Source: an uncultured virus (IMG/VR IMGVR_UViG_3300038530_001278) (Duplodnaviria > Heunggongvirae > Uroviricota > Caudoviricetes). From it: 20,000 nucleotides of DNA. The stretch lies in the IMG/VR virus record IMGVR_UViG_3300038530_001278; one strand, given 5' to 3'. The notes beneath the pieces were generated by a model that was not told where the DNA came from, made no database searches, and saw only the letters and a list, made by a program, of their open reading frames with translations. Shown piece by piece: positions 1-15,881 of this stretch; the stretch's first letter is position 1, and the number at the start of each line of letters is the position of its first letter. A program made the position numbers and the translations under genes.

Positions 1-3000
1 ACTTTTAAATGTAGCAAGTATACCTGCTTGTCTACTAAGAAAGTCTGCTTCTGCATCAGTTCTAGGACCTTCTTGTAGTATCTCTTCAATATTGAATGGA
101 CCTTTAATATCTTGATCCATATTAGAACTAGTAATATCAATATTTTTCTTTGGGTTACCTTGTTTTACTTTTGCTCTTATTAAATCAAGAGCGTAGTTTT
201 GACCTTTATAGTTTGAAGGAATTGTAGTAGTTTCCTGTAATTTTGTATAGTATTTTAATATAGGTTGATTTATAAATAATAGAGATCTAAGCTGTCCAGC
301 TCCTACTGCAATCAAGTCTAGTAAAACAGTTGTCATATCAGAACTTAAGTTTACTTGTGCAGCTAATCCTAATTTAGCATTGTCAACAAACAATGTTATA
401 ATAGAAGAGATTGAATCAAACTTACTTCTTACACCTTCTGTTATATTTAGATCTGATCCTATGTCATCTTCTTTTTGTATTGTATAACTTTTATACTCTT
501 TACCATCAAAGATTACACCCGTAGGTTTAGCTAACATGTCTTCTCCAAACTGTGTTAATATTGAATATGCAGAGTTACCATTAGCACTTATACCTACACC
601 CTGTGCACTTCGTCTGTTTTCATTATGATAATCAAGTATACCTGTAACAGTAAAAGGAGATTTAGAAACTTCTCTTTCTCCATACATATCTACAAATGTT
701 TGAGCTTGTCCTGCAGTAGCCGGTGTAAACATAACTTCTTGTACTTCAGGTCTATTAAACACCTCAAACATATTATCTAACATTTTATTGTGTGATACTT
801 GTGGATGTGTATATACAGCTTGTCCTTCTTCGTTTAGTAATCCTAACCTTTGCATTGCCTCTGTAGGTCCTATTTTATACACTTGTTGTGCTAGTTTCAC
901 ATATTGATGATTAGACCAGTACTCTTTATACTGTTGTAAGTTTGGTTCATTGTCTAGTAGAACTCTAGTATTACCTTGTACTGTAGATGCATATCTATGT
1001 AAGTATAGTTTATCTAAGTCATAGTCAGATCCTGCTACAGCTCCTATCTGTCTAGGAACAACAATTGTATCTCCATGTGAATCTTCTAAGAACCCTACAA
1101 CCTTTAGAGGTATCATAGAGTGATAAGTTTGTACTGGTATACGTACACCAAATGCAGTTAGTAGTTTAGTAGGTACATCTTTAATATTAGTAAATTCATT
1201 TAGATTAAAAAACTTTCTAGATGCTAGTATTTCAGCATACTCTATAGCTCCATTTTTATTTCTATGTATCTTTAGTGGTTGTCCTGTTTGTGGATTTACC
1301 ATAAAACTACTAGAAGCAAGTGTAGCTTGTCCTCCAACTACTTCACTACGTAAAGCATCTCTATTAAATATGTCTACAATAGATTGTATAATAAGACTTC
1401 TAACATCTGGTAAATCTTCACTAAGAGTTTCTAACTTGTTTAATGTTTCTTCGTTCCTTATGCCTTTATTGTTATTAACTATTATTTGTTTTAGTAGTTC
1501 TATATTATCCGGATCATTTACAATAGCATTTATTAATTGATAGAATGTATTTTTACTATCTGCACTTGCTTGATTCATAGCTTCTACTATAGCTCTACCG
1601 TCCCCTACAACAACAGAACCAATAAGATCATGCAATTGTTTTGCTTGTGTTGCATAGGTCTCTAACCCGTATTTAGACTTAGTTCTGTTTACTACTTGAT
1701 CTCTTTCATATTGCATTTCTCCTTCCTGGATCAGATTATTAAACTGTCCTGCATCATCAGCAGTAGAGAAATAATTAGATGGTAAACTTTCTGGTGTCTT
1801 TCTTTTACTTGCACTTTCTGTTATTAAGTACATTACTTTTTGTGCATTAAGTGCATTATATATATTTAACAATACAGGATTACCAGCTACGTCTTGTTTT
1901 TCTGCCATCCTTTTTGTTATAATAAAGTCAGACTTTTTAAAGTATCTATTACCGTCTTCGTATACAGTCTTTGTACTATTTAAGTCAAGTTGATTTATTT
2001 CTCCTTGTGTAACAACTATATCCGGATCGTCTAAACTATCTCTTAGCTTTTCTAGTATTTTTCTTTGACTATCATTTTGATAGTTTTCTGATTCTAGTTC
2101 TCTGACGGCATACATTTCAAGAGTCATAAATACTTGTGCATCATTTGCACTTACTCCCTGTTGACCAAATGCTTCATCTTCTGAAAGTATATCATCTTGT
2201 ATTACAACATACTTGTATCCTATGTTTCCTTTCTTAAGACCTGCAGCATTAAATCCAGCAAGTCGTTTTACAAAGTCTTTGTCATCTTTAAAGTTAGAGT
2301 CACCGAGAGCTAATTGTGTATAATTACCCCCGTATATAAGATAGTTTATAGCAAGGTTACCTATCTTAGAATTAATATTACCAACGGAAGGACCTGTTAC
2401 TACTAACTTGTTAATCTCATCTAATAGTCCTAGTTCTTCTACTCTTTCTCTTAGATCTCTTACCACTTCTTGTAACATTGGTAAGATTATATTTTGTTTT
2501 ATAAATTGTTCTTGTCCATCTAATGTTTCTCTGTCTTTTAAATAGTCTTTTACTAACATTGTTTCACCATTAGGTGCTGTTATTGTTTTCTTTTCTAGTA
2601 TAGACAATATACCAAAGTAATTAGTTGAATCTAATTGTTCTTCTGGTGTTAAGTTACGTTCAAACTCTCTAACAAATAAACTTTTATATGCATCATCTAT
2701 TGCCTCTTGTGTGATGTTACCATCAAAATATATTTTCTTTGGAAGTTTTATTGCATACAAAGACTTTTTAGTTTCTATTACATGAGGCGTATAATATGCA
2801 TATCCTTCTGAGTCTTCTTCTAAGAATAAACTAAACATAAGAACAGCTCTTTGTTTTGCTGTAAGTGTTTTATTTGTAGCTGTATCATTACCTTCTACAA
2901 AGTCTCCTGCCATTTTTATTTCAATACCAGAAACTTTATTTTTTAGTAAGTTATTTTTAAATTTAGTTTCAAATAAACTATTCATTCTACCTTCTTGTAG

Positions 3001-6000
3001 CTTTCTAGCATTCTCCATATACAGATTTCTAGATACGTATTTATATCTTGACTTACCTTGTGCATCTCTATAGTTTGCTTCATATGTTTCAGGATCGAAT
3101 ATAGCAGCAATCTTTGCTAGTTTATAAAGCTTATCGTTTTGTTTTAGACTTAATGGTTTTTTGTTATATCTATCTAGCTTTTGTAGTGTTCCTCTAAATA
3201 GTGTTTTTATATTACCAAACTCGTTCATTTCTAGCTCTGGAAAAGCTTCCTTCATTTTTTGTTCACCTAGCATGTATGCTGCCGCTGCAGGTTCTATACT
3301 CCATCCTAGTTTATCAAAAGCATTTACAAGACTTTCTACTTTAGTATAAGGACTTGCTGGGTTATTAAAAATAGCTTCTATTTCTTCTATAGCAAGACGT
3401 TTAGTTTTGGGATCTATATTACTACTTCTACTATACCATTTATTTAATATTTGATTTATAGGTCCGTTTTGTACAGATTCTATTATAACTGCTTTATTCT
3501 TTTCTTTTAATAATTTTATATAGGGTAAATTAAATTTATTAAATGCATTTGTGAAAGAAGCTTCTATAGATGGATTTGCTTTTATAGCTAATACAACTCT
3601 AGATAACTGATCATCATACCTAGCAGCTGCTTCTAATCTTTTCATTACATCTCCCTCATCTATTTGATCTGAGACTACTTTCATTATATGTCCAGATATT
3701 GCATGACCGTCTAGTGTTTTTAGTATTTCTTTAGTCCCGTACTTTTCTGATTGCCATGTACGTCTACCAAATATATCTTCGCTTGGTGTAGTTATAGTTT
3801 TTATAAACTGTTTTACTCTTTGTGGAAGAGACGCAATTGCAGATATTTCGTTCCAGGCTATACTATAATTAGGATCTAGAACGTCTGGATCTTGCTGTGT
3901 ATATCTATAGTTGTATGTTACAGCTGTAATTATATCACTTCTATCAAAGTCAGGAGAGTTTAATATAGCTTTCTGACGTCTTGCAAATCTCATTTGTTCC
4001 TTAAGAATCTTAGCTTCTTCTGGAGTATATATATCTTTAGTTTTAAAAGATACTAAAGTTATACCTTCAATATACTCATCTAGCAACTCATTGATAGTAT
4101 TAGTTACATCCGGTAGATCTTTTGGATCTTTCTTCATGTATATTATAGGATCTACAGGTCCGTCTATAAGCTGAGCAGTAAGCTGATTAATAAGATCTAG
4201 TCTTACACCATTGTTAAGTCTATTAACATCTATGTTTTCTAATCTATCTTCTTTATTTAATTCATCTACTATATCTTCAAAGGTTTTATTTTTTTCTGGT
4301 GTTGGTTCAGGTTCTTGTTGAGTTCCTTCAGTCTCTGGTTTTTCTAATACAATTGGATTACCATCTTCATCAAAGAACTGTCCCTGTCCTACAAAAGTGC
4401 CTTCTGGTTCTACAGGTGCTTCTTCTACTTTAAGTTTAAATATATCATCACTTACTTCTATGGACATAGTAGCATTAGCAAATCCACCAGGTCCCATAGA
4501 AGACTCAAAGTTATCAGGTTCTATTTCTGATCCGTCATTAGGTATACTCTCTTTAAAACTTGTTTCATCTATAGCTGCGATGCCTTCGTATTTAGTAATA
4601 TACTGATTTATCGTATCTATTATAGTCTTTATAGATACGTTACTTCTAAGTCTAACATTTGGTATTATCTTTTGATCTGTACCATTAGCTTGTCTTTGAG
4701 ATCCGTATATACTTAGTTTATATGAGTTTGTTTTTCTATCTAAATCTACACCTACGTTTACATATAGATTTCTAGATCCTGCTATAAATAAATTTAATTT
4801 TTTATTTATTCTATTTATTTCGTTTGTAAAGTGTTTTTGTGTGTACTTGCCTTCCTTTATTTGTTTGTTAAGTGTAATAATCTCTGCTTTTACTTCATCT
4901 AATCTTTGTTTTAGTTGTTTTGTATTTACTCGTTTAGGAAATATTCTTACCCATTCAACAACCTCACCTTGTTTTACTAGTGCAAAGTATCTACCTTCAA
5001 AGGTATTTTCATTAGGAAGCTTAGCAAACTCTTTTTTAGATGGTGTTTTACCATATATTATTTTCTTTTCAAGTCTATCGTATATAATATAGTCTCCGTC
5101 ATAAGTATGTGGAACTACTTTATTAGTTAAAGATATACGGTTTTGTTGGTTAGGGGTCGGAGTAATCTTTGCACTAACATTAAACTTAAATAAACTATCA
5201 TCTAGTATCTGTGGTTTTTCTAGAGTTGCATTAGGATACAATTTTTCTAGTTGGTCTAATGTTTGTTTTAATGTTTTGTAATTATTACCCCAGGCTTTCC
5301 ATTGTTCATCTGTAAATGTACCTACCTTATTAAAGTTTTTTACAAAAAACTCTTCGGTCATTTGATCTCCCTCTATCAAATTACCATCTATATCATAAAA
5401 TCTATTATTAGATCTTACTACACCTAAGATAGTACCGTCTTCTCTATCTCTTATTATTAAGAAAGATCCGTTCATGTTTATTAGCATGCCTGGATTCTTT
5501 TTATGTGTATCTGATAACTTTCTAGGTATATTTACAAATTCTACTTGTATTCTTTTTCTCAGGTTTGGGTCGGTTGTTAGTAACCTTTCTAGTGTTTCTC
5601 TAGATATAGTATTCATAGATGCTTCTTCTGATGCTACCTGTAACCAGTAAGTATCTAAAAAGTTATCTCTATGTCTTGGATCTGCTTCAGAAGATAGCGA
5701 GACTAGTTCTACTACGCCTTTTCCTTCAGTAACTCTAATGTTTTTACCTTCTTCATCTTTTTCATCTAGTATATATTGTTTCTTTCCATTTGGTCCAACC
5801 TCTACATTTAGAACTCTCCCGGTTTTATCTTTACCATATTTAATATGTGTAGGACCTGCTTCAGGAACCATTTCAGAAAATACTTTAGATTCTGCTTTCT
5901 TTTGTGCTGCCTCTTCTCTTCTTTGTTGTGCATCTGCTTCTTGTTGTGCTTCTATTTGTGCTTTTTTTCTTCTTTCAAAGAAGTTTTCTTTTTTCTTTTT

Positions 6001-8679
6001 TGACGTGCTTTCTTTTTTTAGCGGCTCTTCATTTTCTTTTTCTTTTTCTAATGTTGTTTTTTTAGCTTCGTTAATATCGTTTTGCAGATTCTCCCAAGTA
6101 TCAGGAGAAGTTAGTAGTTCATTTATTTTATCGTCTGCTTGTTTTATTATATTATCATACTTCTCAGATAAGGCATTATATACATCATCTATTTTCTGTT
6201 GATCATCTGCTTGTTTTACTTTTAACGCTTCAAACACATCTTTAAACTGCGGATCTTTTTGTAAAGCTTTAAGCAGTTTATTAAAAGCAGCTGGGCTTTT
6301 TGATGCTTTTCTATAGAGCTCATCAAGCTGTTCTCTTTGTAGTTGTGCTTTTGTTTTACCAAGAGCTAAAGTTCTTAATCCATTAATTATTGAGACCGGT
6401 ATATTTTCTATATCAGATAGTCTAGCTTTTTCCGGGTCTGACATAATATCTAGTAAACTATTATTAACACTTTGTAAGTTTTCTAAATATTTCTTTTGTG
6501 CCTCTAGTTTTTTTAATGTTTTGTTTCTTACTGGTCTCGTTAAATTTTTGTTTGCTCTTGTTTTAGCTATTCTTTTATCTAAGCTTTCTATTTTTTCTTT
6601 ATAGTTTTGATCAAGCAATAAAGACTGTCCTGCTATATACTGTCCTTTTGGAGACAAATAGCTATATGCTATCTCATTATCTTTCCATAAGGCAGTCATG
6701 CCTTCTACTCTTCGTTTTAGTTTATTATACTGATACCTACTAATATTACCTGCAGCGTATATATTACTTAATTTATCTAGTATTCGATCTGATTTTCCCT
6801 CAGCTATTAAGCTCATGAGATCTGGATCATACGCAGCATTAGTAATTGTTCGAACTCCTGCTCCTAATATAAAGCCAATAGCTCCTTCTCCTAGCATTTG
6901 TTCTATATCAAACAGCTGTGTAGGGTCATCTCTAAATTTACCTGCTCCTTGTGTTGCTTCTTCTGGTGCAAAGTAAGCATTGTATGTTTGTTTTGTTGCA
7001 TCTATTACTGCACCTTGAGCTATTTCTTCTGTTCCTTCTTCAATACCTGAGCTTAATCCTCTACCTAGTCTTGTAGTTATTCCTCCTGCTCCTATTCTTT
7101 CTAACCTTTCAAATACATTTTTTAGTATAGGACCTGTCATTTTATCTAGGAACTCTTTGCTATTAACTTTCATTCCTGTTCTTTCAGCAAAGTTGAATAT
7201 AGCTCTGTATATTTCATTGTTGCCTCTAACTCCCATCATTCTATTTGCTAACCGGTTTGTACCAAAACCATACTCTATCAGAGTATTTATAAATCCTACG
7301 GTTAGTCCCATAGTAGCTGCTTCGTCATCATCTAATCCATCTAGCTTAGCTTGTTTATATATCTCACCGGCATTTATCGGCATACCTCCAGCCATATGAC
7401 CCATCATACTTGATAGTTTAGCAGGAAACTTCTTACCTAATTTTTTAGCTAGAAACAATCCTCCTTTTGTAAAAAGCTTAGAACCTACACTACCCATTCC
7501 CCAGAATGATAATAGTGATGCTAGTCCACTTCCTAATCCATTAGAAAAAGAAGCTCCACTTGCAAATAAATCATCTGTTTGTTCAGCTGCAGATCTACTA
7601 AATCTATTGAACTCTGTATTAACTCTTGCTTCAGATGCAACTCTATCAGTCCATCCGTCTGGATTAGAATCCCAATCTCCTGTACCAAAGAATTTATTAT
7701 ATCCTGCTTCTGCTAAGTCTGTAGTTAACTCTGCAAAGTTTAATAAATCAGGAACTAAACCACCAAGAGTATGACTAAACCCATCATTAAAAGCTTGTAA
7801 TGCACTTTTAGCCATAACATTAGGACCATGTGCGTTCATTAATGCTCCTCCTATTCTTCTAAACTCTTCTTCATCTAAGGTTTTACTTTCTTGTAGTATA
7901 AAGTCTCCGCTTTCTTCATCATATACAGGATAGAATCCTCTGTAAGCATAAGGATCTACATTCTTACCAGCATAACTACTACCAAATATTCTATCTAGAA
8001 TATTGTTTTCTCTTTCTTCTTGAAGTCTTTGAGAATAAGCATCTGGAAATAGCTCTCTGTAGGCAGCCTCTAGTCTTTTTGATTCTATGTGACTTTCTGT
8101 ATATCCTCGTAGTCTTAGTTCTTCATCAGTATATTTTTCAAATTGACTCGGGTTAAAGATAGAAGTAGGACTATAATCATAGGTTCTTCTAGGTTTATAG
8201 CCATTGATGTCTCTACCCATTAATCTATCTAAGAAACTTGCTTCATCAGCAATGTCTTGTATATTAACTATTTCACCTTCGACAGTACGAACTTTACCTT
8301 TTCTAAATAGCTCTATAGCTTTTTGTTGATAGGGTGTATTTGCTTCTGCTTGTGGTGAAGTTTCTGTTCCTCTAGATCTTATAGGACCAAATATAGGTGC
8401 ATTCTCTGGTAAGAAATCTTTAGGTACATTATCTTCATCTGGACTTATAAAAAAGTCTATGTTTTCTTGAACATTTTGTTCTCTGTTTCTAATGTTTTCT
8501 TGAAACGCTGCAATATCTAAACTAGGAAAAGATATTCTAGTATCATCCGGAGTAAGATCTAGTACACCTAAAGTATTTGTTACTGGTTGTTTATTAGGAT
8601 CAGTCTGCTGTTCAAATCTACGAGAAGACGGTCCAGGAGTAAAACCACCAGATTGCATATCTTTCTTTTTCTTCTGCAT
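1..8679 (-). CDS. Giant virion-associated RNA polymerase polyprotein (crAss-like two-barrel RNAP), 3'-truncated by the window edge, at least 2893 aa
   Basis: Manual translation from ATG at 8679 (MQKKKKDMQSGG..., 2 nt after the upstream stop) shows no in-frame stop to base 1, which explains its absence from the ORF track. Contains FGVRIPVQTYHSMIPLKVVGFLEDSHGDTIVVPRQIGAVAGSDYDLDKLYL (DxDxD at 1012-1026), plus FVKRLAG, ANDAQVF (DAQ 2134-2142), FVDNAK and FINQPII, resembling crAss-like virion RNAP motifs (phi14:2 gp66 type, DFDID). Confidence 0.93.
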   Translation of the reverse strand, partial: MQKKKKDMQSGGFTPGPSSRRFEQQTDPNKQPVTNTLGVLDLTPDDTRISFPSLDIAAFQENIRNREQNVQENIDFFISPDEDNVPKDFLPENAPIFGPIRSRGTETSPQAEANTPYQQKAIELFRKGKVRTVEGEIVNIQDIADEASFLDRLMGRDINGYKPRRTYDYSPTSIFNPSQFEKYTDEELRLRGYTESHIESKRLEAAYRELFPDAYSQRLQEERENNILDRIFGSSYAGKNVDPYAYRGFYPVYDEESGDFILQESKTLDEEEFRRIGGALMNAHGPNVMAKSALQAFNDGFSHTLGGLVPDLLNFAELTTDLAEAGYNKFFGTGDWDSNPDGWTDRVASEARVNTEFNRFSRSAAEQTDDLFASGASFSNGLGSGLASLLSFWGMGSVGSKLFTKGGLFLAKKLGKKFPAKLSSMMGHMAGGMPINAGEIYKQAKLDGLDDDEAATMGLTVGFINTLIEYGFGTNRLANRMMGVRGNNEIYRAIFNFAERTGMKVNSKEFLDKMTGPILKNVFERLERIGAGGITTRLGRGLSSGIEEGTEEIAQGAVIDATKQTYNAYFAPEEATQGAGKFRDDPTQLFDIEQMLGEGAIGFILGAGVRTITNAAYDPDLMSLIAEGKSDRILDKLSNIYAAGNISRYQYNKLKRRVEGMTALWKDNEIAYSYLSPKGQYIAGQSLLLDQNYKEKIESLDKRIAKTRANKNLTRPVRNKTLKKLEAQKKYLENLQSVNNSLLDIMSDPEKARLSDIENIPVSIINGLRTLALGKTKAQLQREQLDELYRKASKSPAAFNKLLKALQKDPQFKDVFEALKVKQADDQQKIDDVYNALSEKYDNIIKQADDKINELLTSPDTWENLQNDINEAKKTTLEKEKENEEPLKKESTSKKKKENFFERRKKAQIEAQQEADAQQRREEAAQKKAESKVFSEMVPEAGPTHIKYGKDKTGRVLNVEVGPNGKKQYILDEKDEEGKNIRVTEGKGVVELVSLSSEADPRHRDNFLDTYWLQVASEEASMNTISRETLERLLTTDPNLRKRIQVEFVNIPRKLSDTHKKNPGMLINMNGSFLIIRDREDGTILGVVRSNNRFYDIDGNLIEGDQMTEEFFVKNFNKVGTFTDEQWKAWGNNYKTLKQTLDQLEKLYPNATLEKPQILDDSLFKFNVSAKITPTPNQQNRISLTNKVVPHTYDGDYIIYDRLEKKIIYGKTPSKKEFAKLPNENTFEGRYFALVKQGEVVEWVRIFPKRVNTKQLKQRLDEVKAEIITLNKQIKEGKYTQKHFTNEINRINKKLNLFIAGSRNLYVNVGVDLDRKTNSYKLSIYGSQRQANGTDQKIIPNVRLRSNVSIKTIIDTINQYITKYEGIAAIDETSFKESIPNDGSEIEPDNFESSMGPGGFANATMSIEVSDDIFKLKVEEAPVEPEGTFVGQGQFFDEDGNPIVLEKPETEGTQQEPEPTPEKNKTFEDIVDELNKEDRLENIDVNRLNNGVRLDLINQLTAQLIDGPVDPIIYMKKDPKDLPDVTNTINELLDEYIEGITLVSFKTKDIYTPEEAKILKEQMRFARRQKAILNSPDFDRSDIITAVTYNYRYTQQDPDVLDPNYSIAWNEISAIASLPQRVKQFIKTITTPSEDIFGRRTWQSEKYGTKEILKTLDGHAISGHIMKVVSDQIDEGDVMKRLEAAARYDDQLSRVVLAIKANPSIEASFTNAFNKFNLPYIKLLKEKNKAVIIESVQNGPINQILNKWYSRSSNIDPKTKRLAIEEIEAIFNNPASPYTKVESLVNAFDKLGWSIEPAAAAYMLGEQKMKEAFPELEMNEFGNIKTLFRGTLQKLDRYNKKPLSLKQNDKLYKLAKIAAIFDPETYEANYRDAQGKSRYKYVSRNLYMENARKLQEGRMNSLFETKFKNNLLKNKVSGIEIKMAGDFVEGNDTATNKTLTAKQRAVLMFSLFLEEDSEGYAYYTPHVIETKKSLYAIKLPKKIYFDGNITQEAIDDAYKSLFVREFERNLTPEEQLDSTNYFGILSILEKKTITAPNGETMLVKDYLKDRETLDGQEQFIKQNIILPMLQEVVRDLRERVEELGLLDEINKLVVTGPSVGNINSKIGNLAINYLIYGGNYTQLALGDSNFKDDKDFVKRLAGFNAAGLKKGNIGYKYVVIQDDILSEDEAFGQQGVSANDAQVFMTLEMYAVRELESENYQNDSQRKILEKLRDSLDDPDIVVTQGEINQLDLNSTKTVYEDGNRYFKKSDFIITKRMAEKQDVAGNPVLLNIYNALNAQKVMYLITESASKRKTPESLPSNYFSTADDAGQFNNLIQEGEMQYERDQVVNRTKSKYGLETYATQAKQLHDLIGSVVVGDGRAIVEAMNQASADSKNTFYQLINAIVNDPDNIELLKQIIVNNNKGIRNEETLNKLETLSEDLPDVRSLIIQSIVDIFNRDALRSEVVGGQATLASSSFMVNPQTGQPLKIHRNKNGAIEYAEILASRKFFNLNEFTNIKDVPTKLLTAFGVRIPVQTYHSMIPLKVVGFLEDSHGDTIVVPRQIGAVAGSDYDLDKLYLHRYASTVQGNTRVLLDNEPNLQQYKEYWSNHQYVKLAQQVYKIGPTEAMQRLGLLNEEGQAVYTHPQVSHNKMLDNMFEVFNRPEVQEVMFTPATAGQAQTFVDMYGEREVSKSPFTVTGILDYHNENRRSAQGVGISANGNSAYSILTQFGEDMLAKPTGVIFDGKEYKSYTIQKEDDIGSDLNITEGVRSKFDSISSIITLFVDNAKLGLAAQVNLSSDMTTVLLDLIAVGAGQLRSLLFINQPILKYYTKLQETTTIPSNYKGQNYALDLIRAKVKQGNPKKNIDITSSNMDQDIKGPFNIEEILQEGPRTDAEADFLSRQAGILATFKS

Positions 8680-8681
8680 CT

Positions 8682-10553
8682 TTATGGTATTTCATTTAGC
8701 TTTGTTAATTCTGTAGGTCGTCTAAACATAGCCCCACTTGTTGCTTTTATAACTTCTGGAAGTATTCCTTGTCTTATATTATCAAGTACGTTTTGTTGTC
8801 TTGGAGTTAATTGTCTTCCTGCACGTACAGATGCTAATATTCCATTAACTTCATTTATAGCTGCAGCAACAATAGGACTACCTGCACCAGGTTGTAGTAT
8901 TTTTTGGTATTGTTGCAATCTTTGTTTTGTACTATGGAAGTCTGTTACTCCTCCTACAACTCTATATCCTGGCATCAATCCTCCTCCTGGAGTTCCTACA
9001 TTAAATACAACAGACTCAACAGGTGTAGGATCAGCAAGAACAAATCCTTGACTTACTTCTCCCTTTTCATCAAATACTTCATATTGTACTTTTGGTTTTT
9101 GTTCCACAATCAATGCTCTTCCATCTGTCATATTTAAATAAGTAACTTCTTGTCCATTAACATTTACACTTTTAGGTATAAATGATTCAAGATTTCTTTC
9201 TAGTTTATTTGAACCTCCAATAAATCCTCCAACTTTTCCACTAAAAGGTAGCTCGTTTGCAAAGTTTGCTTGTGTTTCTGCGTTCCATTCTAGACCTTGT
9301 TCTTTAAGAGCATCTGCTATATCTTGTGTTCTTAATCCAAATGCACCAGAACTCATGTCTGCAACTATAGGAACTAACTGAGCTGTTCCTGTTCTTCTAG
9401 CATTATAAGATTGTGTAGAAGGACCATCTGTAAACTTTGATCTAGAAACAAGATTACCACTAGCATCTGTTAAATCAATTATTTTTCCAGGTAATTGTCT
9501 TTGTCTAATATCCTCTTGTGAATAATTTGTGTTAATAGCATCTGCACTTGAATAGTATGATGCTTCATCATCTCCTGCCATACCCAAAATATTATAATCA
9601 TCTTCTTTAAAGCCTCTCATGTCTCCTTCAATGTATTGAGTTCCAAAGTCTGTTGGTAATGTTGTAGTATCTTGATTAGCTGCTAATAAAGCATTTCTAT
9701 AACTTGTATTTAAGTTAATACCTTCTTGATTATAAACAAACTCATTACCTACGTTTTGTAGTTGTGATTTCCATACATTATCAAATGCAGTCTTATCAAA
9801 AGGCTGTCCACTAAACTGAGCCTGTGCTTGAGCATTCTCTAACGACTGTTGATATTCTTTAGTTCTTGTTAAATCATCAAACACAGAGTTTACAATAGCG
9901 TCTATTCTTGGTTGAGACACTCCTTGACTAGTTAATACATCAAAGAACTGATTAACTTTATATCCTTTATTAGCTTTTAGATTTTCAAAGAAAGCTTCTA
10001 GTGCTGGTCTTCTATCTACAGTAGATCCTATATATGATTGATAAGCTTGAGGCGTACCATCTGGACCCATTGTAGTAAAGTTAGGATCTGATAAGTATAT
10101 AGGAGCAAGTCCTTTAACTCTCATTTCATCTAGTATTTTTTGATCTGCATCAAATTTCTTTTTGTTATCTATAGCTTGGTATAACCATGGATTTTTAGAT
10201 ACGTCTTTTGCTAGTCCTCTAACAAACTGATCGCCTTTTTCAAAAGCACCTCCTGTATCTTGTACAAAAGTATCTATCTGATCTTGTAATCCTTTGATTA
10301 AATTTTGTTTTTCAATAGAGTCTCCCTCCATAACTTGAGCAGCTGCTAATGCTTCTTGTAAACTATCTTTGTAATCTGCTACTCTTCTGTATTCTTTATT
10401 TAGTCCTTCCATAGCTGTTTGTACAGCTGTAACCGGAACGTCTGTATATAACTTACCTAATGAGGCTAGATTCATATCATCAAAAGGACTTCTCCTTCTT
10501 CTTCTACCTCTATAGTATTCTCTTGGTCCGTAATATCCTGGATAATAACTCAT
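8682..10553 (-). CDS. Putative virion cargo/ejection protein, 623 aa
   Basis: Long ORF tightly coupled between the cargo genes and the RNAP gene, the position of cargo proteins in crAss-like phages. Helical N-terminal half and a Tyr/Arg-rich N-terminal arm. Function inferred from position only. Confidence 0.65.
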   Translation of the reverse strand: MSYYPGYYGPREYYRGRRRRRSPFDDMNLASLGKLYTDVPVTAVQTAMEGLNKEYRRVADYKDSLQEALAAAQVMEGDSIEKQNLIKGLQDQIDTFVQDTGGAFEKGDQFVRGLAKDVSKNPWLYQAIDNKKKFDADQKILDEMRVKGLAPIYLSDPNFTTMGPDGTPQAYQSYIGSTVDRRPALEAFFENLKANKGYKVNQFFDVLTSQGVSQPRIDAIVNSVFDDLTRTKEYQQSLENAQAQAQFSGQPFDKTAFDNVWKSQLQNVGNEFVYNQEGINLNTSYRNALLAANQDTTTLPTDFGTQYIEGDMRGFKEDDYNILGMAGDDEASYYSSADAINTNYSQEDIRQRQLPGKIIDLTDASGNLVSRSKFTDGPSTQSYNARRTGTAQLVPIVADMSSGAFGLRTQDIADALKEQGLEWNAETQANFANELPFSGKVGGFIGGSNKLERNLESFIPKSVNVNGQEVTYLNMTDGRALIVEQKPKVQYEVFDEKGEVSQGFVLADPTPVESVVFNVGTPGGGLMPGYRVVGGVTDFHSTKQRLQQYQKILQPGAGSPIVAAAINEVNGILASVRAGRQLTPRQQNVLDNIRQGILPEVIKATSGAMFRRPTELTKLNEIP

Positions 10554-10555
10554 AT

Positions 10556-12133
10556 TTATGCTGGTTTATAAGAGCCGTCAGCTTGTTTTACATACCCTAA
10601 ATTACTAAATAGTGCATCTATTTGTGGGTCAGAAAAATAACCAGGAGCATAGGCTCTGTTCATAGCTCCATACATATTTAAGTAAGGTGCTAATGCTTGC
10701 AATTGTGCTTCTTGTGATCTCTTATTAGTTCTTTGTGTTAGTAGATCTTGTGCGTCTTGTACAACACCACTGAATAAATTTCTATTTGCTAATCTTCTTT
10801 GATTTAAAAAGTCTGCTAGTTGAAATTCATTATCAAAATCAGTTTTTATATTCTTTTCTTCTATTGGTTTATTAATAGCTGCTACTCTCATTCCTAATTG
10901 GTTCTCTAAGTTTCTTTTACCTGAAAATAGTTTACCTCTTGCTCTTGCTCCTGCTGTTACATCGGCTGCGGTGTTCTTATCAAAATTCTGTCTTTTTGTA
11001 GACATTTGTTTTCTTTGTTTTAAATTAAGTAATTGATTATCTGCAATTGCTTGTAGTTCTGGATTTATATCAACTTCTGTATTAGCATAGAATGGACTGA
11101 TTCTTCCCATAGGAGGTGGTGCTATCATACCTCTAATTGTATTAGCATCATTCATATACTCTAATCCTTTTGTAGCTCCTAATAAACCATCAACTATTTT
11201 GCCTACAATAGCTTGTCCTTTAGTTTTACCAGCACCTGTTGCTCCACTTGTACCTGTTTGAATTTCATTATTTGCAGGAGTACCTGGTATATTTATTGCT
11301 TGAGCTAAGTTAGATAAATCTACCTTTGGCAGTTCAGGTTCTAACATTACAGGTTGTTTTGGTTCAATAGCTAATACAGGTTTCTCTCTTGCGTCATTAA
11401 ACTCTTTTAATGCAGCAAAAGTATCTTTACCAAACTTGCCATCTATCCCTGCATTATTTACAGAAAACCTTCCTCCTTTATTAATAAACTCAAATTCATC
11501 ACCTGATAAAAATCTTTCAGAACCCGCTCCTGTATAACCACCTAGTAGTCCTTCTTGTAGTCTTTTTACATGCTCAGGGTTTCTAGGATTAAACTGATCA
11601 CCAAGTCCTGATATTAATCCAGCTTCACCTAATAACTCTTCTGTTAATTGATCATCTGTTATACCATCATATAACTGTCCGCCTGCTTGAAAAACTCCCC
11701 TACCTTTCAATACGTCAGCTCTAGTTATTTTGTCAAATGGTGGTGCTAATGCTGCAAGTTTCTTTTCTTTTGGCGTGAGTTTACCTCCTTTTTTCATATA
11801 CCCCATTGTGTTTCTAACCTCTTCAGGTAACTTAGGTAATCCTTTATTATCTGGTGGTATAGGTTTAAGCGTTCCGCCTTTTGCCATTCGCATTTCTCGT
11901 TGAGCAATGCTTTGATTAGGTGAATCAGGAGCAGTTTCTTTCTGATCCATTTTATTTGCTTGGTTTTGATTATCAAGCATAAGCTGATTCAGCCTATCTG
12001 ACACACGTTTTAACATAAGAGTAGCTGCATTCTTTTCTGCATCTGTTGTAGCATTCTGTAATGCACTATCATATTTATTATATGCGTTAGATAACTTCTC
12101 AGCTATATCTGCGTATGTCATTTTTTTAGCCAT
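10556..12133 (-). CDS. Putative virion cargo protein with peptidoglycan-binding-like domain, 525 aa
   Basis: HVKRLQEGLL...GIDGKFGKDTFAALKEF resembles the PG_binding_1 signature (LQ..L...DG.FG..T..A...F). Three hydrophobic-x-x-GG motifs (MAKGG, MKKGG, FQAGG). Helical N- and C-termini. Confidence 0.7.
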   Translation of the reverse strand: MAKKMTYADIAEKLSNAYNKYDSALQNATTDAEKNAATLMLKRVSDRLNQLMLDNQNQANKMDQKETAPDSPNQSIAQREMRMAKGGTLKPIPPDNKGLPKLPEEVRNTMGYMKKGGKLTPKEKKLAALAPPFDKITRADVLKGRGVFQAGGQLYDGITDDQLTEELLGEAGLISGLGDQFNPRNPEHVKRLQEGLLGGYTGAGSERFLSGDEFEFINKGGRFSVNNAGIDGKFGKDTFAALKEFNDAREKPVLAIEPKQPVMLEPELPKVDLSNLAQAINIPGTPANNEIQTGTSGATGAGKTKGQAIVGKIVDGLLGATKGLEYMNDANTIRGMIAPPPMGRISPFYANTEVDINPELQAIADNQLLNLKQRKQMSTKRQNFDKNTAADVTAGARARGKLFSGKRNLENQLGMRVAAINKPIEEKNIKTDFDNEFQLADFLNQRRLANRNLFSGVVQDAQDLLTQRTNKRSQEAQLQALAPYLNMYGAMNRAYAPGYFSDPQIDALFSNLGYVKQADGSYKPA

Positions 12134-12134
12134 A

Positions 12135-14654
12135 TTATATATTTTTTAAGTAATCTTCAACATTAGTTTTTAATCTATCGGAGAAAACAAACCCTGCATC
12201 TAATGCTTGGTTAGTTTGTGAACCAAATCCGGTGTTACCACCTTTTACTCCTATACCGCCTGAGGGTGCATCATGCGTGTCTCCTACAAATTTAAACATA
12301 TTTGGTCCAATTTTACGCACTTCTCCGTGTTTATCTGTCTTTGGCGGGTTATTTGCAGGTGCCATCATTAGCTCTCCTCCTTCTACCGTATAATCAGCAT
12401 CAGGTATCATACCGCCATCCTTAGCATAGTAGCTATAATTATCAACTCCCTCTGTAGGGTATTGACTTAACACACTAGCTGCTTGTACTTGATCTTGTGC
12501 AGACTGTGAAGCTAGTCTATTATTTAATCTATTTTCTTTATCTGCTTTCATTTTTGCTAATAGTTTTTTGTGTTGGCTTTTTCCTAATAGTCCACCACCT
12601 ATAGCACCTAGAACTCCACCTACTATAGCTCCTACAGGACCAAGTGCCATACCCAGAGATGCTCCTTGACCTGCCATATTAATTGCTTGTGCTGTTCCTG
12701 CCTCGCCTGGTGTAATCTCTGATGCATCATCACCTAAACTTGCTTGATAAATACCGCTACCTATAGTTCCTAGCTGATCAAACGGTATAGCTGACATTGT
12801 TTTAGCAAACTTACTTTGTCCTCCTCCAGAACTATTACCTTGATTTCCACTAGTTCCACTAGTTCCGCCACCTGTATTAAACTTTTTCTTTTTAGGTAAT
12901 ACTTTTATTTTACCATTGTGTGTTCTTGCATATCTATGTGTAGCTGTTTCTCTACTAGGTATTAAAGTACCGCTATACCTTTTACCTCCGAACATCCAAC
13001 TTACGTTTCCTCCTTTACCCATTGCTGGTGGAAGTGGTAGAGGCTCTGTTCTTATAGGCATGGCTGATACATCTACTATAGGACTAGGAGATAATGTACT
13101 TACTGCTACTGGAGAGCGTTGGTATCTACCACTATCTAACATATTTTGATATCGAGCTAGTTCGTTATTGAGGTTTTGCATATTGCCTGTATATCTAGTT
13201 ACTCTATATCCACTTTCAGGATCAGCAAAATCATATTCTACAGGTCTTGAAGATATTCCTTTTCTAAAACTTCCTCCCATATTTTCCATTATTATAGGAT
13301 TTCCAGCATCATCAAACTTTCCAGAGAATATTTGTGTATGTTGTCCTCCTTCAGGTCCACCCGTGCTATAGTTACTTACAATTCTATCTCCTGGTTGTAA
13401 GTCTGCGTATGATTGTGGGTTAATAACTTCCATTCCCATACCGGCAGGATTTGCTTGTATCATAGAATTCATCATAGCATTACCTGAAAAGATAGGCAAT
13501 CTACCAGGATTATAAGTACGACTACCATCTGGAGATTCAACTTCTCCATGTAATTCAGCTCCTGCTTCAGCTAATATTCCACAGCCGTAACTTGTACAAC
13601 CATAAGCATTTTTATTTTGTTCCTGTAAAGAGCTTAAATAATTAAACGTAGGACCTATAACTTCAGTTGAATCTACACTTTTTTGATTATATGGATCTCT
13701 ATTTCTTTCTTCTGCCGTAGCATATTTAGGTAGTTGATCTTGTATGTTTTGTTGAAACTGCTGTAATCTTTGTTGTTCTGCAGCCATAGCAGCATTTATT
13801 CTTGCCATTTCTGCATCTATTTGTTTTTTAGTCATCATCTTATCAGAGGACTGTGTGTCAGCTACGCTACCTCCTCCTTGTAAATCATCTTTATTATATG
13901 TTTCATAATAAACACGTAAACCTTCTTCTCCTCTTTTAGGATCAAGTGTGACTTGATTTTGTATATTAAAGTTTTGTGGTAAATAAGGTAAGTTAAAACT
14001 TGTTTGTCCTTCATTTATTCTTTTTTGTATTCTAGCATCTCTTAACTGATCTAATACCATACCTGTTCTATCATCACCATAACCAAAAAACATTGTATCA
14101 TTAGGTTGAAGATTAACTCTTTCAGCAAACTCATTATAAGTAGGTATGTTAAACTGTCTCTGTAGTTTTCTATCTTGAAATATTGGTGTTTTACCTCCAG
14201 CTTGAAATTGTTGTGTACTTAGTTTTGTCCCTTTATTAAGTACTTTACTAGCTACTTTTGCAGTTGTAGGATTTAATCCTGATGCTTTTAATGGTCTGGC
14301 AAAAGGGAACATACTTGCAAAACTCATTGCTGCATCTCCATATTTACCACCAGCCAAAGACTCCACACCTTTATAAAAAGTTCCAGGTATATTAGCCATA
14401 TTAAACGCTATATCCATAGGTTGTGATTCCACATTACCTGCTTCTAGAGCTTTATCAAAGTTATAAGGTAAATTCCCTGTTTGGAACTTCTGTCTTAGAG
14501 ATTGAAAAGGGTACTTAATAAAAGAACGTACATCGCTACCAAACTCCTGTAAAGCTGTAGGAGCCTCAGAGATCATAGCCTGCCCTGGGACAGGTGGAGG
14601 AGGAGTACCTCCCATTTGTTTTTTTCTAGGATCGTATGTATATTTTTTATTCAT
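12135..14654 (-). CDS. Putative virion cargo protein with NlpC/P60-like peptidase domain and glycine-zipper membrane segment, 839 aa
   Basis: GCTSY...LQPGDRIV...QHTQIF (Cys at 13596-13598, His at 13338-13340); GASLGMALGPVGAIVGGVLGAIGGGLLG glycine zipper; C-terminal VEGGE...GDTHDAPSGGI...FVFSDRLK block that I recall from crAss-like cargo proteins. Confidence 0.72.
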   Translation of the reverse strand: MNKKYTYDPRKKQMGGTPPPPVPGQAMISEAPTALQEFGSDVRSFIKYPFQSLRQKFQTGNLPYNFDKALEAGNVESQPMDIAFNMANIPGTFYKGVESLAGGKYGDAAMSFASMFPFARPLKASGLNPTTAKVASKVLNKGTKLSTQQFQAGGKTPIFQDRKLQRQFNIPTYNEFAERVNLQPNDTMFFGYGDDRTGMVLDQLRDARIQKRINEGQTSFNLPYLPQNFNIQNQVTLDPKRGEEGLRVYYETYNKDDLQGGGSVADTQSSDKMMTKKQIDAEMARINAAMAAEQQRLQQFQQNIQDQLPKYATAEERNRDPYNQKSVDSTEVIGPTFNYLSSLQEQNKNAYGCTSYGCGILAEAGAELHGEVESPDGSRTYNPGRLPIFSGNAMMNSMIQANPAGMGMEVINPQSYADLQPGDRIVSNYSTGGPEGGQHTQIFSGKFDDAGNPIIMENMGGSFRKGISSRPVEYDFADPESGYRVTRYTGNMQNLNNELARYQNMLDSGRYQRSPVAVSTLSPSPIVDVSAMPIRTEPLPLPPAMGKGGNVSWMFGGKRYSGTLIPSRETATHRYARTHNGKIKVLPKKKKFNTGGGTSGTSGNQGNSSGGGQSKFAKTMSAIPFDQLGTIGSGIYQASLGDDASEITPGEAGTAQAINMAGQGASLGMALGPVGAIVGGVLGAIGGGLLGKSQHKKLLAKMKADKENRLNNRLASQSAQDQVQAASVLSQYPTEGVDNYSYYAKDGGMIPDADYTVEGGELMMAPANNPPKTDKHGEVRKIGPNMFKFVGDTHDAPSGGIGVKGGNTGFGSQTNQALDAGFVFSDRLKTNVEDYLKNI

Positions 14655-15118
14655 TATTTATTTCTTATTGATTGAAACTTTTCTGCCCCACGCGAACCAA
14701 AATAAGCCACATACACGGTAACCAAAAGTGTCTGCAATAAATCTACCCAACCTTCAGATACACCAAAGCTCCACTCAAAACTATCTAGTAGTATAAGTAG
14801 AACCATAGATATAGTTAAGAAGATCAAACTCAGAGGTCTAGTATTCTTACTTAACCATGAGTCTGATTTCATATCGCTTTCCCATCGCTTTGAGACTTCT
14901 TGCATCTCAACCATATCAAGCTCAAGCAGTTTCATTGCTTTCTCTTTATCTTCTGGGGGTAGTACAGTGTCCGGTTCTTTTTCAATTAAACCTTTTACTA
15001 CACCTAATACTCCTGCATCAGGTAAAACATCTCCAACAACACCTAATATACTAGGTACTTTCTGAGACAGAAACTGTCCCACTTTAGTTTCAGAAAACTT
15101 CTTTTTTGGCTTACTCAT
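14654..15118 (-). CDS. Holin, 3TM (GTA-type) family-like, 154 aa
   Basis: Amphipathic N-terminus, then RWESDMKSDSWLSKNTRPL followed by two hydrophobic helices ending AYFGSRGAEK, the pattern of the 'holin of 3TMs' family. TAATG overlap with the downstream gene. Confidence 0.75.
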   Translation of the reverse strand: MSKPKKKFSETKVGQFLSQKVPSILGVVGDVLPDAGVLGVVKGLIEKEPDTVLPPEDKEKAMKLLELDMVEMQEVSKRWESDMKSDSWLSKNTRPLSLIFLTISMVLLILLDSFEWSFGVSEGWVDLLQTLLVTVYVAYFGSRGAEKFQSIRNK

Positions 15119-15122
15119 AATA

Positions 15123-15410
15123 TTAACATTTCCACCTACGTCTAGCTTGTCTTATTCTAGAGTTCGGATTATTTCTAGTTTTTGCACTAGATCTCTTGAG
15201 TTGTCCCAGGCTTCTAGCACAATACGATTTACGTCTTTTAGCAGCTTTACTGCCTCTTTTAACTTTGCCGGTAACTGCAGTCTTTAGTTTAGATCCAGGG
15301 TTAGCACGTCTATATGCTCTGACTCCTTTACGAGTCATGCCTGCACCTGACTTAGTTTTACGATAGTTACCGCCTTTGCCAGTAGTTCTCCTTATAGCTT
15401 TCTCTGCCAT
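15123..15410 (-). CDS. Small highly basic phage protein, 95 aa (RRKSYCARS...RRWKC type; DUF6321-like by recollection)
   Basis: Very Lys/Arg-rich, with RRKSYCAR and terminal WKC motifs familiar from aquatic phage proteins. Start overlaps the upstream stop (TAATG). Confidence 0.8.
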   Translation of the reverse strand: MAEKAIRRTTGKGGNYRKTKSGAGMTRKGVRAYRRANPGSKLKTAVTGKVKRGSKAAKRRKSYCARSLGQLKRSSAKTRNNPNSRIRQARRRWKC

Positions 15411-15580
15411 TATTTCTTCTTTTTTCTTTTCTTAGCTGTTTTTGCAGCTCTTCTGAAATTAGCAGCTGTAGGAGCTCCTTTAGAACCTGGTTTTCTCATT
15501 TTTTCACCAGATCCTGCTTTAATACGCTTTCTTTTAGCGTGTATGTTTGCGTACAAACCTTTTTTCTTCTTTTTTGCCAT
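15410..15580 (-). CDS. Small basic protein, 56 aa (MAKKKKKGLYANIHAKRKRIKAGSGEKMRKPGSKGAPTAANFRRAAKTAKKRKKKK)
   Basis: Manually translated, below the ORF-track cutoff. ATG 15580, TAA 15410-15412 overlapping the next ATG. The GLYANIHAKR motif is familiar from marine phages. Confidence 0.85.
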   Translation of the reverse strand: MAKKKKKGLYANIHAKRKRIKAGSGEKMRKPGSKGAPTAANFRRAAKTAKKRKKKK

Positions 15581-15588
15581 AATAATTA

Positions 15589-15711
15589 TTATTTACATCC
15601 GTCTTTACGGAATTTTTTTAAACTTAACATACCACCATGGGCGTAAGAGTAAGATCTTTTCTTCTTCTTACGTTTTGTTGTTCCACCTTTTTTCATGCAT
15701 CCACACCCCAT
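15589..15711 (-). CDS. Small basic protein, 40 aa (MGCGCMKKGGTTKRKKKKRSYSYAHGGMLSLKKFRKDGCK)
   Basis: Manually translated. Fills the gap between neighbours (2 nt after the upstream stop) and carries two GG motifs (MKKGG, YAHGG). Confidence 0.75.
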   Translation of the reverse strand: MGCGCMKKGGTTKRKKKKRSYSYAHGGMLSLKKFRKDGCK

Positions 15712-15713
15712 GA

Positions 15714-15881
15714 TTAAACATTTCTTCTTTTGATATTCATAGCAGCTAGCATTCCGCCACCCATCTTACTGAGCTTTTTATCTAGCATACCACCTATTGC
15801 ATACGGAGTTGGTTTATCCGTAGATCCGCCTGCTTTCATCTTCATCTTTTTCTTTTTCTTTGATTTTGTATGATATCCCAT
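15714..15881 (-). CDS. Small basic protein, 55 aa (MGYHTKSKKKKKMKMKAGG...YAIGGML...)
   Basis: C-terminal part of ORF-track entry 15714..15974. Start reassigned to ATG 15881 because the longer version overlaps the 15907-16056 gene. Carries GG motifs. Confidence 0.75.
   Translation of the reverse strand: MGYHTKSKKKKKMKMKAGGSTDKPTPYAIGGMLDKKLSKMGGGMLAAMNIKRRNV

Follow-up and report, generated by a model that had tools for sequence, protein, structure and literature searches.

A short peptide made of a hydrophobic residue, two variable residues and Gly-Gly recurs in the proteins encoded by a 20,000-nucleotide stretch of DNA of an uncultured tailed virus (IMG/VR record IMGVR_UViG_3300038530_001278; the whole stretch is called the window below), where it marks seams and leaders, is specific to the cargo and is a genuine feature at the protein level. 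The window represents the block of cargo genes in the genome of a marine, uncultured crAss-like phage, since its relative G001 (a contig of 67 kb, 82% complete according to CheckV, with 63 open reading frames (ORFs) called in this analysis) encodes a Crass_capsid major capsid protein, a portal, a large terminase, a family A DNA polymerase and an RNA polymerase (RNAP) ORF of 4605 aa. The motif is found in the giant RNAP, in proteins of 839 and 525 aa and in tiny basic proteins, all of which are most likely virion cargo, as we infer from synteny with crAss001 and phi14:2. In crAss-like phages, the protein cargo amounts to megadaltons and includes a giant RNAP. A peptide common to the cargo proteins would help to explain how this cargo is chosen, loaded, silenced and threaded out, and it would predict cargo in uncultured phages and mark module boundaries for constructs. 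A literature search on the motif and on cargo processing (with subscription journals outside its coverage) returned no published description of the motif.

Enrichment and conservation of the motif

The five-residue instances listed in the initial annotation of the window are encoded precisely where it had placed them, all on the minus strand, e.g., MQSGG at the N-terminus of the RNAP (8644-8658) and, in the 839-aa protein, LQGGG (13869-13883), KQMGG of the leader (14607-14621) and AKDGG of the so-called hook (12411-12425). Residues were permuted within each of the 17 window proteins in 2000 rounds. The pattern [MFYL][QKNGAE]xGG was observed 14 times against a shuffle mean of 3.37, a count reached by 0/2000 shuffles; [MF]xxGG was observed 11 times against 2.99 (P=0.001) and [MFLYIVW]xxGG 20 times against 12.06 (P=0.019). 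Within the initial annotation's own set of proteins, chosen after the motif had been noticed and thus post hoc, 15 were observed against 4.68 (0/2000 shuffles). At the same time, six non-cargo window proteins held 1 motif versus 2.0 expected, and the 623-aa protein of the same block held 0 versus 1.3.

The proteome-wide comparison proposed in the initial annotation was run on G001 with 500 shuffles and showed the excess to be confined to the cargo and small basic set. The six proteins of this set contained 14 motifs versus 4.11 (0/500 shuffles; 8.7 per 1000 aa), the 55 other ORFs 14 versus 14.11 (P=0.55; 0.95 per 1000 aa) and the RNAP 5 versus 3.53 (P=0.29); none of the capsid, portal, terminase and replication proteins encoded on this contig contained the motif. 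The cargo set follows the choice made in the initial annotation and the enrichment grouping is therefore post hoc, but the conservation data are independent of that choice. The restriction to the RNAP N-terminus, the 839-aa and 525-aa proteins and the tiny basic proteins is compatible with the suggestion, made in the same annotation, of a tag defining the cargo set.

Conservation was followed in 30 related loci from IMG/VR and marine metagenomes; neither the DNA nor the 839-aa and 525-aa proteins matched any GenBank phage. For the 839-aa protein (12135..14654, minus strand), which consists of a leader, modules, a CHAP-like domain, cassette C, a glycine zipper, the hook and a C-terminal beta domain, 39 homologues were collected (alignments A1 and p839fam). 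Gly-Gly is retained across orthologues: three glycines (G15, G747 and G748) do not vary among 13 homologues that are 41-88% identical, and at least 90% of these have G16, G261/262 and G548/549. In the leader MNKKYTYDPRKKQMGG (14607..14654, minus strand), which contains G15 and G16, one relative (L001/G001) has GA in place of GG.

The best-kept element ahead of the C-terminal domain, judged from 125 representatives of different 50%-identity clusters, is the hook YYAKDGGM (aa 742-749; 12408..12431, minus strand), which forms the N-terminal edge of that domain (aa 750-839; 12138..12407, minus strand) and in A1 has invariant Y742, Y743, A744, G747 and G748. A profile of the last 140 aa retrieved 127 clusters at E<=0.001 among 1.84 billion representatives (51 at <=1e-10 and 14 at <=1e-30). 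In the hook consensus, [YF][YF]AKxGG, Gly occupies column 48 in 113/115 and column 49 in 106/117 of the 125 representatives; in the EGGE string further on, Gly is present in only 62-66% of them. What lies upstream of the hook varies, being a glycine zipper and a helix in short proteins and lysozyme-like or other domains in long ones.

The residues at positions -2, -1 and +1 of the motif are variable. A transglutaminase Gln-donor site is a further conceivable role, but Q at -2 is not universal. The Gly codons at the sites vary synonymously (GGT/GGA/GGC/GGG) with the residues retained; therefore, selection acts at the protein level. The free variation of the Gly codons also led to the rejection of a DNA-level recombination signal. 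Could the motif be a chance product of Gly- and Lys-rich low-complexity sequence? The 839-aa protein is indeed Gly-rich (98 Gly, 21 GG), and the motif set was defined after viewing the data. However, shuffles that keep the composition yield 3.4 motifs where 14 are observed and, in the cargo set of G001, 1.8 where 13 are observed, and the positions of the sites are conserved over clades, so this explanation is contradicted by the conservation data and is hardly credible.

Leaders, joints and portable modules

The ORF at the end of the block encodes the N-terminal 2893 aa of a giant polyprotein (1..8679, minus strand) and runs off the window. It is most likely the virion RNAP, judging by its size, the synteny with crAss-like phages and the label given in the initial annotation; the part in the window has no Pfam or PHROG match, and its orthologues in 16 loci are 34-50% identical. 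Its N-terminal leader MQKKKKDMQSGG (8644..8679, minus strand) consists of Met, a basic run and M-Q-S-G-G, and the same design (Met, then 2-9 residues, most of them basic, and [KM][LYM]QxGG) is seen in 16/16 orthologues, with the following ~70 aa not conserved. Overall, the leaders are basic and 10-16 aa long. The initial annotation remarked that a Lys/Arg run precedes many of the motifs, which is true of the leaders (MQKKKKDMQSGG, PRKKQMGG, KKKKFNTGG and KKKKKMKMKAGG) but not of every instance.

A role as a junction code inside the RNAP polyprotein was rejected: of the nine GG positions in its first 2893 aa, the leader alone is a conserved motif site. The HMAGG at position 431 is conserved, but it has His at -3 and sits in a conserved block. 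In 2/16 RNAP orthologues, an extra N-terminal domain of ~335 aa with HEISH (an HExxH sequence) was noticed (L023:7082-8100, L030:4324-5340 (+)); it is flanked by the motif on both sides (KLQGGG and KMQGGG) and has no Pfam or PHROG match.

In the 839-aa protein, insertion and deletion boundaries of the alignment coincide with the motif sites, in line with their earlier placement at domain borders. The FQAGG joint (14193..14207, minus strand), aligned with [FYM][QEN]xGG of relatives, is the upstream end of a deletable module of ~100 aa whose downstream end is the DLQGGG joint (13869..13886, minus strand; G261 and G262 in at least 90%). This module is cleanly absent, with the gap running from joint to joint, in 4/13 sequences (P0006, P0018, P0019 and P0020). 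In another clade (8/17 aligned orthologues), the entire central part is swapped for other sequence, yet KYQAGG after the leader, the QMQSGGMV joint, YGNGGK and, ahead of the C-terminal domain, YYAKYGGHI are retained. Further downstream, the alignment places MGKGG (13008-13022), cassette C (NVSWMFGGKRYSGTLIPSRETATHRYARTHNGKIKVLPKKKK) and FNTGG (12867-12881) in succession (12867..13022, minus strand); they are followed by a hydrophobic glycine-zipper segment (aa 664-697; 12564..12665, minus strand), helical in the AlphaFold2 (AF2) model and matching Pfam Gly-zipper_Omp with an E of 0.003, below the curated cut-off.

Cassette C (VSWMFGGK...THNGKIK) also occurs between xxxGG joints in the 525-aa family of L017, L020, L024, L025 and L026. 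The 525-aa cargo-like protein (10556..12133, minus strand) combines a conserved helical N-domain of ~80 aa, a cassette mosaic and a conserved C-domain of ~330 aa, and its orthologues, present in 29 loci, differ in the number and kind of cassettes in the middle. The cassettes are 25-100 aa long, each ending with [MFY]xxGG, and every joint is xxxGG; the N-domain ends with xxxGG in 27 orthologues with ends listed, of 30. In the window, MAKGG (11873..11887, minus strand) joins the N-domain and cassette A (TLKPIPPDNKGLPKLPEEVRNTMGY-MKKGG; 11783..11872, minus strand, MKKGG at 11783-11797), which is present in 1-3 copies in orthologues. It is followed by a second cassette ending with ...ADVLKGRGV-FQAGG (11678..11782, minus strand; FQAGG at 11678-11692), whose tail is common to cassette B ("FPDLTGDGK..ADILKGRGVF"), also found inside unrelated DUF6321 fusion proteins (P0253). 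Cassette D is internal to the 525-aa orthologues of L016, L023, L027 and L030, between FGNGGG and KAMGGS, and exists in the window as a stand-alone 56-aa basic protein (phrog_16028; 15410..15580, minus strand), itself motif-free. Gly-Gly joints are thus the places at which complete modules enter or leave a protein or pass between the 839-aa and the 525-aa family, and distant proteins of 1000-1400 aa show the same cassettes and joints with an N-terminal KQQGGQ and a C-terminal LKQGGE.

The tiny proteins are conserved, have two or three sites each and consist mainly of motifs. The 40-aa basic protein, MGCGC-MKKGG-TTKRKKKKRSYS-YAHGG-MLSLKKFRKDGCK (15589..15711, minus strand), has an orthologue in L001 (85% identical) and relatives of 54-60 aa in L016, L017, L020, L021, L022 and L028 with three [YF]xxGG sites each; the 55-aa basic protein (15714..15881, minus strand) contains MKAGG, YAIGG(ML) and KMGGG(ML). 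The YA[HI]GGML of these proteins copies the hook of the 839-aa protein, YYAKDGGMI.

The 95-aa basic protein (15123..15410, minus strand; Pfam PF19846, DUF6321, E 1.9e-11) is a portable module that also forms the C-terminal part of 1833 longer proteins; its own TGKGG was rejected as a true instance of the motif, the fused relatives having GPGA or GPNA at this place. In 15 fusions examined, the module is preceded by other portable basic modules, cassette B or an intein-like insert, and the upstream joints are MKNGGK, FKSGGR, MAKGGN, MKKGGM or, with no hydrophobic residue, KPKGG. In two of the small basic-module proteins (P0217 and P0253), which are interrupted by an intein-like insert (...VYPCVP...TGNSAYANGW...), cassette B and DUF6321 come after the insert and are connected by xxxGG. 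The 95-aa protein is 73-97% identical to the module in the 120 listed of the 1833 longer proteins, on contigs of up to 121 kb, an identity unusually high for a small, very basic phage module occurring in many different fusions. No mention of DUF6321 was found in the searchable literature. The rule may extend beyond Crassvirales, because many other proteins of marine phages that contain DUF6321 have their portable basic modules connected by such joints.

The joints alone might be accounted for by a passive helix stop and flexible linker which has no partner or enzyme and merely travels with the shuffled modules. A hydrophobic residue three positions ahead of the Gly cap is a known feature of helix capping. 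In the AF2 model that covers the hook (44-row alignment, mean pLDDT 71.6), the hook has a pLDDT of ~50 and the beta domain 75-95, which suggests that the hook would be flexible on its own; the variable residues at -2, -1 and +1 and the DUF6321 fusions, often devoid of the hydrophobic residue (KPKGG, QGVGG, AKAGG), are consistent with such a linker as well. On the other hand, the hook GG is better conserved than the neighbouring residues of the folded domain (98%, versus 62-66% for the second GG), the motif also stands 10 residues from the N-terminus with no helix or domain ahead, the enrichment is limited to one functional set of proteins and the tiny proteins are mainly motif. The passive linker is considered improbable.

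Docking or cutting

The reading favoured here, tentatively and with somewhat less than even confidence, is that the motif serves as a cargo-specific seam, leader and docking handle which stays uncut. The cargo proteins would be strings of small portable modules packed into the head and injected, in which [M/F/Y/L]-[Q/K/A/G/N]-x-Gly-Gly would mark the leaders, the module joints and the edge of the conserved C-terminal domain. The Gly-Gly pair may provide a flexible break allowing each module to fold, unfold and pass the portal and tail separately; together with the hydrophobic residue, it may form a short linear element ordered only upon docking to parts of the particle. We infer both the intactness of the motif and its docking. 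In crAss001, similar sites flank or open the segments of gp45 (C1) sitting on the tail barrel and portal wing.

Structures of gp45 are available (PDB 7QOG, 7QOI, 7QOJ, 7QOL and 8CKB; Pfam PF25725, crAss_CARG1; Bayfield et al. 2023, PMC10172136). The order of the window genes (muzzle, 839 aa, 525 aa, 623 aa and RNAP) parallels crAss001 gp44 (muzzle), gp45 (C1), gp46 (C2) and gp47, which suggests that the 839-aa protein is the functional counterpart of gp45. Both proteins follow the muzzle gene and precede the genes for a ~530-aa protein and the RNAP, and both are of similar length (842 aa in gp45 vs 839 aa). Both begin with a basic leader followed by Phi-x-x-G-G, Phi being the hydrophobic residue (FDTGG in the gp45 start MAKKKIKRRGKMPPNIFDTGG vs KQMGG), and both have a glycine zipper and many GG sites. 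The strings EGG[SE] and [FY]VFSDR[LM] are common to their C-terminal domains. Unlike the 839-aa protein, gp45 has its glycine zipper in the N-terminal part rather than near the C-terminus, lacks a CHAP-like domain, and has the aromatic residue of its sites mostly at -1 (AYGG, AFGG).

Beyond the leader, gp45 has SAYGG (206-210), FAEGGG (260-265), KAFGG (329-333), AFGG (425-428) and AYGG. According to the text on its structure, residues 214-245 form a helical segment on the tail-barrel rings R1 and R2, and residues 425-552 a compact domain that interdigitates with the loops of the portal wing (PMC10172136). By our count, the first ordered segment begins 4 residues past SAYGG and the second exactly at A425-F-G-G428; because this site opens the ordered portal-bound domain, it appears uncut and continuous with that domain in the mature virion. 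The gp45 peptides given there from mass spectrometry (79-101, 181-190, 275-300 and 307-320; PMC10172136) neither span nor abut a Gly-Gly site, and the main text lists 13 bands for the virions, all unassigned.

A distant relationship of the C-terminal beta domain to the crAss_CARG1 domain is possible. PF25725 covers residues 424-555 of gp45, which scores 222 bits; two of 16 family representatives match it at 24.6-24.8 bits, under the 27-bit cut-off, and hhalign of the C-terminal domain against it yields a probability of 9.5% with the A3 profile and of 46% with the 125-sequence profile, the latter over 22 columns around VFSDR. The 839-aa protein itself has no match to PF25725 at E<=1, nor do 14 C-terminal domains at E<=10. 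The A3 profile fails to find 7QOG; no solved relative was found with the profiles of the 839-aa protein (A1), the Cys-His domain (A2) and the C-terminal domain (A3), and both fold searches with the C-terminal model were dominated by long-helix matches. In pairwise BLAST comparisons with gp46 and gp45, the 623-aa and 525-aa proteins reached only E>=0.12, and the 623-aa protein showed no significant similarity to gp46 (E 0.12). A best local alignment of the 525-aa protein (aa 73-140) with gp45 (aa 225-286), likewise not significant (E 0.12), pairs cassette A (LKPIPPDNKGLPKLPEEVRNTMGYMKKGG) with a gp45 stretch starting inside the tail-barrel-bound segment and extending beyond it (RLTSLPNSFQALPEMNTYNAFAEGGG). 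Universality of the motif in Crassvirales was rejected, since g065-g071 of phi14:2 lack the leader motif and contain only a few sites.

Several points weigh against an uncut docking handle. The placement of gp45 is taken from the text of the paper, so that contacts of motif residues are presumed rather than seen, and it is only tentatively that the 839-aa protein can be credited with a C-terminal homologue of the portal-bound CARG1 domain. The crAss001 sites may be a different element, because the position of their aromatic residue differs (A-[FY]-G-G). A pure hinge would need no leader 10 residues from the N-terminus; moreover, the uniform Gly-Gly joints, the short leaders and the short basic tails resemble polyprotein cleavage sites, and an unrecognised or host protease is conceivable given the 82% completeness of G001 and its many ORFs that belong to no family.

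Such a resemblance underlies the other main possibility, namely that a maturation protease, either host or phage-encoded and unrecognised, reads the motif as its cutting code. The leaders would then be removed, the cassettes and tiny basic peptides freed in the head and the 839-aa protein split into a tail and a capsid part. Adenain processes the core proteins of adenoviruses in this manner. A code of this kind would explain the invariant Gly-Gly with its upstream hydrophobic residue at the joints of unrelated modules, after leaders and before basic C-terminal tails. It would also fit the separate genes that start where a cut after GG would fall (MG-LYANIN and MAKKKKKG-LYANIHAKR vs FGNGGG-LWANIHAKR). 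Candidate enzymes, discussed below, could be the papain-fold Cys-His domain in the 839-aa protein and the HExxH domain of 2/16 RNAP orthologues. Cleavage has been considered for similar proteins: the fused RNAP polyprotein was described as "likely cleaved", and the need of proteolysis for activation was said to be a point that "remains to be determined" (Drobysheva et al., bioRxiv 10.1101/2020.03.07.982082), and autoprocessing was proposed for virion polyvalent proteins (Iyer et al. 2017, PMC5512222); in the parts of both sources consulted, processing is proposed with neither a site nor a demonstrated cleavage. The 2023 Crassvirales review has zero mentions of proteases.

The cutting code is nevertheless the more doubtful of these two readings. 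The RNAP body contains no conserved motif, the residue after GG is unconstrained and may even be Pro (KYQAGGP, SAYGGP), the register cut by adenain is not enriched, and A425-F-G-G428 of gp45 is part of an ordered domain. No protease family was detected in G001 in 46 ORFs (Pfam) or 20 ORFs (PHROGs), a scan covering a contig 82% complete in which many ORFs have no family; Peptidase_C48 was found in 0/2 relative records, PF03412 (C39) was absent among the Pfam results for the window and G001, and HExxH or HxxEH was encountered in none of the 17 window proteins, the C-terminus of the RNAP lying beyond the window. The HExxH domain was rejected as the motif protease, as it was found in just 2/16 RNAP orthologues.

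The Cys-His domain of the 839-aa protein (aa 318-512; 13119..13703, minus strand) has C36...Q121-H122 invariant in 9 sequences (A2). It has no Pfam match, and searches with its AF2 model (pLDDT 56.7) returned nothing at E<=0.001 with Foldseek (best E>=0.2). The VIA search reached a best Z of 4.1 with many CHAP, NlpC/P60 and Tse1 chains and also C39-like chains (Z 2.4-3.7); in the ESM Atlas, CHAP/NlpC_P60 clusters scored 0.91-0.93 with a TM of ~0.5. These weak matches suggest that it is probably a papain-fold cell-wall peptidase of the CHAP/NlpC-P60 type, whose likeliest task would be to open the cell wall during ejection. As a general enzyme for the motif it was rejected, because the clade without this domain (8/17 orthologues) still retains the motifs.

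The initial annotation had offered a protease site or a capsid-loading tag as the function of the motif. What stands is that the motif is real, selected and restricted to the presumed cargo; the protease part is set against the lack of a detected protease family and the seemingly uncut gp45 site, although cutting at other sites, above all at the N-terminal leaders, is conceivable. The docking handle favoured above and the cutting code lend themselves to experiment, since the motif can be mutated or sought in the existing mass-spectrometry data on crAss001 virions, gp45 having similar sites.

Neighbouring genes and known systems

All long ORFs of the window are on the minus strand, and its G+C content is ~33%. 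In transcription order, the window starts with the 3' part of a giant tail protein, followed by a 261-aa protein with the C-terminal domain of the Crassvirus muzzle (PF25729, crAss_MUZ_C, E 1.2e-6), a 421-aa protein and several small proteins, which include a thioredoxin-like and a holin-like one. The four very basic proteins of 55, 40, 56 and 95 aa come next to one another in this order, and downstream of them lie the genes for the 839-aa, 525-aa and 623-aa proteins and then the giant ORF (2893 aa in the window). The 623-aa protein (8682..10553, minus strand) is conserved and motif-free, its N-terminus (YYRGRRRRRSPF) being conserved in 5 orthologues shown. A small holin-like protein (phrog_3427, E 3e-19) is encoded in the window as well.

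Within the structural block, a 421-aa protein (17250-18515, minus strand) has the look of an outer-membrane beta-barrel, with a signal-peptide-like N-terminus, many strand-like stretches rich in aromatic residues and ...FGINYTFR as its last residues; its conservation extends over seven loci, and the Pfam and PHROG scans gave no family match. The gene for a 136-aa thioredoxin-fold protein with a signal-peptide-like start (16450-16860, minus strand; PF00085, E 7.9e-6) is conserved and adjoins the small basic genes. In G001, a 376-aa protein (L031:11817-12944, minus strand) strongly matches RIIB-type lysis-inhibition families (phrog_609, E 2.8e-36). A 374-aa protein encoded between the portal and capsid genes of this contig (L032:15118-16239, plus strand) looks scaffold-like, since it is helical and has a strongly acidic sequence that turns basic at the C-terminus (...RRMKGNKGGYNKTSKRPNIPSLDKLLG), with a KGG site close to its end.

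Among the known systems, the parallel invoked in the initial annotation is the processing of core proteins by animal virus proteases. Adenain cuts (M/I/L)-X-G-G|X or (M/I/L)-X-G-X|G, and pS273R of African swine fever virus cuts G-G|X. The likeness consists in Gly-Gly with an upstream hydrophobic residue, in capsid-internal proteins and in very basic small carriers. However, the parallel does not extend to the register, which is one residue off, the hydrophobic residue here being three positions before the first Gly. The adenain register, [MILFYVW]xGG, shows no enrichment, with 15 occurrences against a shuffle mean of 12.1 (P=0.24), only runs like MQGGG fitting both registers, and no clan CE protease was found in the relative records. 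Moreover, the adenovirus lineage is unrelated to this HK97-fold tailed phage (Crass_capsid match), for which cleavage would be hypothetical. A Phi-x-x-G-G processing code in crAss-lineage and other marine phages, which would have arisen in the HK97 lineage in convergence with adenovirus core maturation, is a doubtful prospect; if it were true, the freed very basic peptides would condense or escort DNA.

Internal proteins of phage T4 bear a capsid-targeting sequence, which is removed by the prohead protease gp21 with its (L/I)xE code. The short N-terminal tag common to head-loaded proteins is the shared feature; in contrast to T4, the sequence is another one, no such protease is recognised, and the motif is also internal and repeated. 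Double-glycine leaders, cut by C39 peptidases, are longer (15-30 aa), have another hydrophobic pattern and belong to peptides exported with an ABC transporter. Here, too, Gly-Gly ends the leader, and the structural matches of the Cys-His domain, weak as they are, include C39-like chains, but C39 with an ABC transporter is not seen, and CHAP/NlpC-P60 chains score equally well or better. There is presumably also a likeness of Phi-Q-x-G-G-Q to the C-terminus of Pup.

In its architecture, the cargo of the window resembles the polyvalent proteins of phages and conjugative elements, which are described as mosaics of many modules that are packaged in the virion and enter the cell together with the DNA, include the N4-type virion RNAP and were proposed to be processed by built-in peptidases (PMC5512222). 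The main text of that paper names no junction motif, with "glycine" and "linker" occurring 0 times, and the zincin-like metallopeptidase of polyvalent proteins has as its parallel here the HExxH sequence of just 2/16 RNAP orthologues. As in polyvalent proteins, several unrelated portable domains are combined in each polypeptide, whose virion location would follow from synteny.

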